IMG/VR virus record: IMGVR_UViG_2737471845_000014
Coordinates: 1 to 22,360 of that record
Length of the DNA: 22,360 nucleotides
Direction: 5' to 3' (one strand)
Origin: a virus
Taxonomy: Duplodnaviria; Heunggongvirae; Uroviricota; Caudoviricetes
The notes below the pieces were generated by a model that saw nothing but the letters and a program-made list of their open reading frames with translations, did not search any database and was not told the origin of the DNA. A program made the position numbers and the translations under genes. Position 1 is the stretch's first letter; every line of letters starts with the position of its first letter. Positions 15,039-15,918 of the stretch are shown here, in pieces.

Positions 15039-15918
15039 ATGATGACGATTAACCAACGTGAGAAACAAACAAGACTACAGGCGCGAATGGATGAGTTACG
15101 GGCAGAGATTGCATTTGCTCAGAATGGCGAAAAGCCATGGCCTTACCGCGCCTGCCGGGAATCTGAAGGGGTTGGATGCTGCGAAAAACACGGTAAATAT
15201 CGTACGCATATACTGGTGTGGGATGATCGGCAGGGGGGCGCTGTCTCAAAAATTTCCCGCTGTCCGGAGTGTCTGGTGGATGAAATGGATGTGACACATC
15301 GGACTCTGGTTGCAATGAAAGCTGATGTGCTGATTGAGAATGCTGGTGTTGCCTGTAGGTTTCGCGACTGTGAGTTTGAAAACTATCAGGAGATTAACTC
15401 TGATGCAGCCAGAAATCTTGCTGCCTGCCGCCGCTATGCAGAGAGCTGGGAGGATGTTCTGGCTAACGGTACCAGTCTTGTTCTGACAGGCAGTTGTGGT
15501 ACCGGAAAAAATCATCTGGCTGTGGCTATGGCAAAACACATCATCCGTAACCATCTGGCCAGTGTGGAGATTACTGATGTGATGCGCCTTACCCGTGCTG
15601 TGAAAAACTGCTGGCGGAATGACAGCGAAAAAACAGCGGATGAAGTTATTGAGCATTATGCGTCATTGGATTTGCTGATCATCGACGAAGTCGGCGTTCA
15701 GTTTGGCAGCGCGGCTGAAATGGCTATTTTGCAGGAAATTATCAATGCCCGGTACGAAAGCATCCTGCCCACCATCCTGATCAGCAACCTTTCACCGGAA
15801 GAGTTGTGGGCGTTCATCAGCCCCCCGCATTGCCGACAGGATCACAGACGGGGGACGCAACTGGTTGTCGTTTAACTGGCCCAGCTATCGTGCGCATATT
15901 GGAGGTGTGGCTGCATGA
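15039..15918 (+). pseudogene. DnaC-like helicase loader (AAA+), frameshifted near the 3' end
   Basis: Walker A (LTGSCGTGKNHLAVAMA) and Walker B (DLLIIDEVG) in frame 0; the conserved DnaC C-terminus (RIADRITDGGRNWLSFNWPSYR) is in the +1 frame after a C6 run at 15821-15826, ending in TGA overlapping the dnaB-like ATG at 15915. Confidence 0.8.

Follow-up and report, generated by a model that had tools for sequence, protein, structure and literature searches.

A one-base insertion in a short C tract probably makes a pseudogene of the DnaC-like helicase loader gene in an Escherichia coli prophage

The gene for a DnaC-like helicase loader in an E. coli prophage changes reading frame at a run of six C, which raises the question of whether the prophage carries a genuine inactivating mutation, a sequencing error or a site of ribosomal frameshifting. 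The DNA analyzed is a stretch of 22,360 nt (the window), which is the complete contig JUDN01000173.1 of the draft E. coli assembly GCA_000798515.1. Direct reading of the sequence gives g-CCCCCC-g at 15820-15827, with the C6 run itself at 15821-15826. The frame-0 ORF that enters this run spans 15030-15875 and encodes 281 aa counted from a GTG, or 278 aa when the ATG at 15039, annotated as the loader start in relatives, is used. Its residues 1-262 are authentic and comprise a Cys/His-rich N-terminal region, Walker A, Walker B and sensor I; after these come 16 out-of-frame residues and a TAA, such that the ORF ends in ...ISPPHCRQDHRRGTQLVVV. The +1 frame across the tract reads ...SAPRIADRITDGGRNWLSFNWPSYRAHIGGVAA (also given as ...PRIADRITDGGRNWLSFNWPSYRAHIGGVAA), where its TGA at 15916-15918 overlaps the ATG at 15915 of a 463-aa DnaB-like ORF. 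Deletion of one C from the tract yields a single 292-aa loader protein. The features of the module are:

14108-15028, plus strand: replication initiator (O-like / DnaD-like), directly 5' of the loader; 306 aa; phrog_270 'replication initiation protein', E = 8.4e-66
15039-15875, plus strand: frame-0 loader reading, DnaC-like; 278 aa with TAA stop; PF01695 IstB_IS21, phrog_50
15821-15826, plus strand: C6 homopolymer and frameshift site; frame-0 codons AGC CCC CCG; one C above the C5 of all relatives examined
15826-15918, plus strand: +1-frame remainder of the loader, RIADRITDGGRNWLSFNWPSYRAHIGGVAA and stop; holds the equivalents of DnaC R216, R220 and R237
15901-15905, plus strand: GGAGG Shine-Dalgarno, 9 nt 5' of the helicase ATG; sole SD-like motif in 15761-15920
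15915-17306, plus strand: intact DnaB-like replicative helicase; 463 aa; PF03796 DnaB_C, E = 5.5e-73, phrog_19

The first-pass annotation had placed a frameshift of the DnaC-like gene at this C6 run, had assigned the conserved DnaC C-terminus to the +1 frame with its TGA overlapping the dnaB-like ATG, and had proposed that dropping one C restores a single ORF. Direct reading with the ORF translations confirms the first point, translation of the +1 frame the second, and alignment of the resulting 292-aa protein with E. coli DnaC the third. Its statement that frame 0 carries the AAA+ motifs holds in part: Walker A, Walker B and sensor I are present in frame 0, but the arginine finger and sensor II are in the +1 frame.

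Inspection of profile matches identifies the family of the protein. The repaired loader matches PF01695 IstB_IS21 with E = 1.3e-15 and 58 bits (cut-off 24.1 bits), the loader matches phrog_50 'DnaC-like helicase loader' with E = 1.1e-82, and a HMMER alignment pairs the repaired loader with residues 48-242 of E. coli DnaC (PDB 6QEL) at E = 1.6e-30. The motifs GSCGTGKNH, LLIIDEVG and ILISN align with DnaC K112, D169/E170 and N203, respectively; these Walker A, Walker B and sensor I positions are all encoded 5' of the shift, and none varies across 17 related sequences. The repaired loader shares with E. coli DnaC (PDB 6QEL/6QEM) the Walker A GTGKNH, the Walker B LLIIDEVG, the sensor I SN, equivalents of R216, R220 and R237, and a C-terminal FNWxSYR motif, and its gene stands immediately 5' of a DnaB-family helicase gene. 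It differs in being prophage-encoded, in its length of 292 aa versus 245 aa, and in its N-terminal ~90 residues, which do not align with DnaC and hold four invariant Cys/His positions. In the window copy, moreover, the arginine coupler, arginine finger and sensor II are out of frame. That is to say, the profile match, the Walker A lysine, the Walker B acidic pair, the sensor I asparagine and the pairing with a DnaB-family gene are all found, whereas the translated product lacks the three arginine elements. The gene is a DnaC/DnaI-type loader by descent, and the frame-0 product is an incomplete member of the family.

The Cys/His positions of the N-terminal region (residues 1-90, window 15039-15300) are C48, H51, C75 and C78, each invariant in the 17 related sequences. 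Their pattern suggests a putative zinc-binding helicase-interaction domain, presumably like the region described for DnaI-type loaders.

The consequences of the shift follow from what lies 3' of the tract. R263, R267 and R284 of the repaired loader fall opposite DnaC R216, R220 and R237 in the HMMER alignment, and are invariant or nearly so in 16 full-length homologs of 53-98 % identity. All three are encoded only in the +1 frame 3' of C6, where the frame-0 product has PHCRQDHRRGTQLVVV; this product thus lacks the three arginines together with the remaining conserved C-terminal residues and the last part of the AAA+ fold. In DnaC, R216 is the arginine coupler, R220 the arginine finger and R237 sensor II (Puri et al. 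2021, PMC8213410). R216 is essentially invariant across the DnaC/DnaI family, R220D and R237D abolish the ATPase activity of DnaC, and the arginine finger is required both for activating DnaB unwinding and for function in vivo (PMC8213410). Biochemically, loaders of this family load a cognate helicase and have an ATPase stimulated by helicase and ssDNA. Judging from this E. coli DnaC mutagenesis, loss of the three arginines means that the frame-0 product should have no ATPase activity and should be unable to activate the helicase. We expect it to have no function or, should it be stable, to bind the helicase non-productively.

Each relative examined has C5 and a single ORF. The first-pass annotation had proposed a comparison of tract length in related prophages, and complete E. 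coli genomes, phages, viral contigs and metagenome contigs were surveyed. Matches to the 889-nt gene occur in 283 complete E. coli genomes; among the matches listed, 40/40 cover 888 nt, each with an intact 'ATP-binding protein' annotated. In each of 20 full-length phage matches the subject is a base shorter than the query segment it covers, and five fetched loci of 86-99.9 % identity show C5 within an otherwise almost invariant 170-nt alignment. A 76-nt probe centered on the tract matches 85 genomes, none of them identically, with a one-base gap in the full-length matches listed. Searches with a pattern allowing C5 to C7 returned 41 viral contigs, 41/41 with C5 by scripted count, and 11 metagenome contigs, where the 32-nt span is C5 in all. 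The same tract pattern has no match of any kind in GTDB species representatives, which is uninformative on tract length.

Comparison of proteins leads to the same form of the gene. Most full-length homologs, which come from Escherichia, Salmonella, Citrobacter, Klebsiella, Enterobacter, Serratia and Pantoea, are 289-299 aa long, and the 16 full-length homologs of 53-98 % identity keep the C-terminal motif ERIxDRvTDGGRNxLxFxWxSyR, which is absent only from the window product. A search of 5.8 billion database proteins finds no homolog whose coverage of the truncated query exceeds 94 % (residues 1-262), the frame-0 tail being unmatched. Whether the short frame-0 ending might instead be the conserved form was examined. 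With all relatives having C5 and a single ORF, it is the 292-aa long form that is conserved, and the short ending is unique to the window contig. Relative to the intact allele of E21845/O/A and UTAK-5, the loader gene shows 0 substitutions and 1 gap, so the difference is very recent.

Among phages, the DnaC-like loaders (PHROG 50) of PhiR49_2, phiP27 and the Stx1a-, Stx2a- and Stx2d-converting lambdoid phages have 81-98 % nucleotide identity to the window gene, and the replication module resembles that of PhiR49_2 (98.3 %), phiP27 (85 %) and Stx-converting phages (81-83 %). In these phages, too, the genes follow in the order initiator-loader-helicase, with loader and helicase overlapping at ATGA. 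Their loader records span 888 nt versus the 889-nt query, with C6 found only in the window copy.

A very recent change fits a fresh mutation or an error alike. Only two records contain the exact truncated protein: GCA_000798515.1 and one Logan contig from read set SRR2239578. The Logan contig equals window 13250-19750 over 6,501 identical bases, C6 included, and C6 is thus in the read consensus rather than the product of one assembler. SRR2239578 is likely the read set behind GCA_000798515.1 (100 % identity), in which case both assemblies rest on one set of data, and a systematic miscall of homopolymer length, as from Ion Torrent or 454 chemistry, would show in each.

We also audited the contig for other indels, piecewise because no complete E. 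coli genome holds the whole prophage (best coverage 75 %). Window 15-4700 differs from VTB97432v by 29 substitutions and 0 gaps, 14586-17564 from UTAK-5 by 32 substitutions and 1 gap (the extra C), and 17562-22360 from TH9F11 by 33 substitutions and 0 gaps. In total, 12,464 bp compared with three complete genomes at 98.9-99.4 % identity contain 94 substitutions and a single indel, which is the extra C. These 12,464 bp hold 66 homopolymer runs of at least 5 nt, and length differs in 1/66, the C6. This pattern is unlike that of a homopolymer-error-prone data set, although a 22-kb contig is too short to exclude a platform with ~1 consensus indel per tens of kilobases. The presence of C6 in the Logan assembly and the lack of any other indel in ~12.4 kb favor a real mutation over an assembly artefact.

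We consider it probable that the extra C is a recent, isolate-private slippage insertion that makes the loader a pseudogene. Replication slippage in a C5 tract would have inserted one C in a single isolate, and this insertion would disrupt the DnaC-like loader gene of a lambdoid (phiP27 / Stx-phage-like) prophage at yecE. Translation in frame 0 proceeds to residue 262 and continues through 16 unrelated residues to TAA, with coupler, finger and sensor II lost. The predicted net effect is a prophage without autonomous replication after induction, unless a host or co-resident loader substitutes.

The leading alternative, which we regard as possible yet rather unlikely, is a read-level or consensus homopolymer error, in which case the tract is C5 in the true genome and the 292-aa loader is intact. 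Flow-based sequencing is classically prone to errors in homopolymer length. C6 is a singleton, absent from every other genome, phage, viral contig and metagenome contig examined, the exact truncated protein is tied to one assembly and one read set, and the gene is otherwise identical to intact alleles. Against these points, C6 comes out of two different assemblers, the 12,464 bp contain no further indel, and the remaining 65 homopolymer runs of 5 nt or more have the same length in the aligned genomes. If the platform was Illumina, a +1 error in the consensus of a 5-mer would be very unusual. The first-pass annotation had ranked sequencing error and genuine inactivating mutation above recoding, and a singleton C6 among relatives that all have C5 is in keeping with that ranking.

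A +1 ribosomal frameshift at C6, either programmed or usefully leaky, is very improbable. The P-site tRNA-Pro would slip from CCC to CCC-C and the ribosome would then read CGC, giving ...ISPRIADR..., identical to the intact loader, and low-level spontaneous read-through of this kind is plausible. No homolog needs a frameshift, however: all full-length relatives are single ORFs, and the recoding site is therefore not conserved. Nor is the two-frame arrangement conserved among homologs, the frame-0 tail matching no database protein. There is no SD-like stimulator 5' of the tract (15761-15900), and the next 0-frame codon is CCG rather than a stop. CCG is not a rare codon. The frame-0 AGC CCC CCG does contain the canonical +1-slippery proline codon CCC-(C/U), at which m1G37 and EF-P normally suppress slippage, as they would in wild-type cells (PMC7577736). 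Relative to the slippage described for tRNA-Pro at CCC-C, the window site shares the slippery quadruplet, CCC-C and then G in frame 0, and a slip that restores frame. It differs in having neither conservation nor a recognizable stimulatory element, and there is no sign that the shift is used. The slippery codon in the window is a by-product of the C insertion. The earlier placing of programmed frameshifting as the least likely alternative agrees with these results, as recoding finds no support among relatives that are all C5 single ORFs.

Two further readings accept C6 as real. We give very little credence to an allele that is not fully null, in which CCC-C slippage would supply a small fraction of full-length loader and leave prophage replication strongly reduced yet non-zero; if true, leakiness of the C6 allele would vary with host EF-P and TrmD (m1G37) status. 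Least credible of all is a phase-variable contingency locus, in which slipped-strand mispairing would reversibly switch prophage replication. The frameshift lies within a homopolymer and loss of one C would reverse it in principle, but the census contradicts this reading: the 137 probe- or pattern-matched loci (85 + 41 + 11) and the listed full-length matches are all C5, and tract length does not vary among the close genomes examined, the window being the sole C6. In addition, distant homologs have G-E-R where the window clade has S-P-R, such that the tract seems limited to the E. coli clade, and typical phase-variable tracts are longer than five or six C.

If the insertion is real, as we think probable, it also bears on the helicase gene. 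In C5 relatives the loader TGA and the helicase ATG overlap as ATGA. In the C6 allele the frame-0 stop lies 39 nt 5' of the helicase ATG and does not overlap it, from which we infer that translational coupling from the loader to the DnaB-like gene is lost. The GGAGG upstream of the helicase could permit initiation independent of the loader ORF. The exact helicase protein is recorded from 50 contigs.

The window opens with cmoB-cmoA-yecN-yecE followed by an integrase and an excisionase, an order that identifies a lambdoid prophage at yecE. The first-pass annotation had suggested a domesticating prophage. This gains no further support from the contig, where the integrase, excisionase, repressor-like gene, initiator, helicase, Q, lysis genes and HNH gene all look intact; the frameshift is thus an isolated lesion on the window contig, the structural genes sitting on other contigs.

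Comparison with other prophages reveals a different neighborhood 3' of the module. E21845/O/A and UTAK-5 (identical loader allele) are located at mlrA, not yecE, and have RusA between an 85-aa gene and Q, whereas no RusA is called in the corresponding window interval, 17303-17907, and its Q-family gene is a different one. This comparison shows a replication module exchanged mosaically between prophages at different attachment sites.

Several other features of the window were recorded. Between the Q antiterminator and the lysis cassette, on the opposite strand, lies a 291-aa gene (18557-19435, minus strand) whose protein has no Pfam match and matches the PADLOC candidate defence family PDC-S42 (PDLC05015) over nearly its full length (E = 2.7e-53). 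It is accompanied by two small unannotated ORFs at 17921-18307 and 18308-18553 (both minus strand). The Q-to-lysis interval is the lambdoid slot for accessory 'moron' genes, stx in Stx phages. Four tRNA genes lie 5' of the holin at 19701-20010 (plus strand), with a CAT anticodon, Lys-TTT, Thr-TGT and Gly-TCC; the CAT-anticodon tRNA is Met per ARAGORN and tRNA-Ile in the annotation of the near-identical TH9F11 locus. Two tandem paralogous ASH/Rha-domain genes of 307 and 283 aa occupy ~12120-13891 (plus strand). The call of the first overlaps an opposite-strand Gp49 / HTH_3 (HigB/HigA-like) pair at ~11735-12362 (minus strand), an implausible 506-aa ORF spans 11523-13043 in the same region, and the start of the first ASH/Rha gene is probably over-called.

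A C7 run at 7439-7445 was considered as a second homopolymer indel and rejected. The run belongs to a short segment, divergent and replaced, where a small minus-strand gene has its 5' end; this gene encodes 62 aa in relatives versus a 48-aa ORF in the window. Relative to E21845/O/A and UTAK-5 the segment is divergent and partly replaced, with no simple length change. Being replaced, it is uninformative on error rate.

The finding itself is ordinary: a single extra base, seen in no relative examined, lies in a short homopolymer and would inactivate a prophage gene of a well-known kind. A census of tract length in relatives, an assembly from the read set and an indel audit of the contig can together triage homopolymer frameshifts without a read pile-up. 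The value lies in annotation, where the loader should be labelled a pseudogene by frameshift, unless reads show C5, in which case its sequence should be corrected. For prediction of inducibility, the prophage in the window should not be assumed to be replication-competent.
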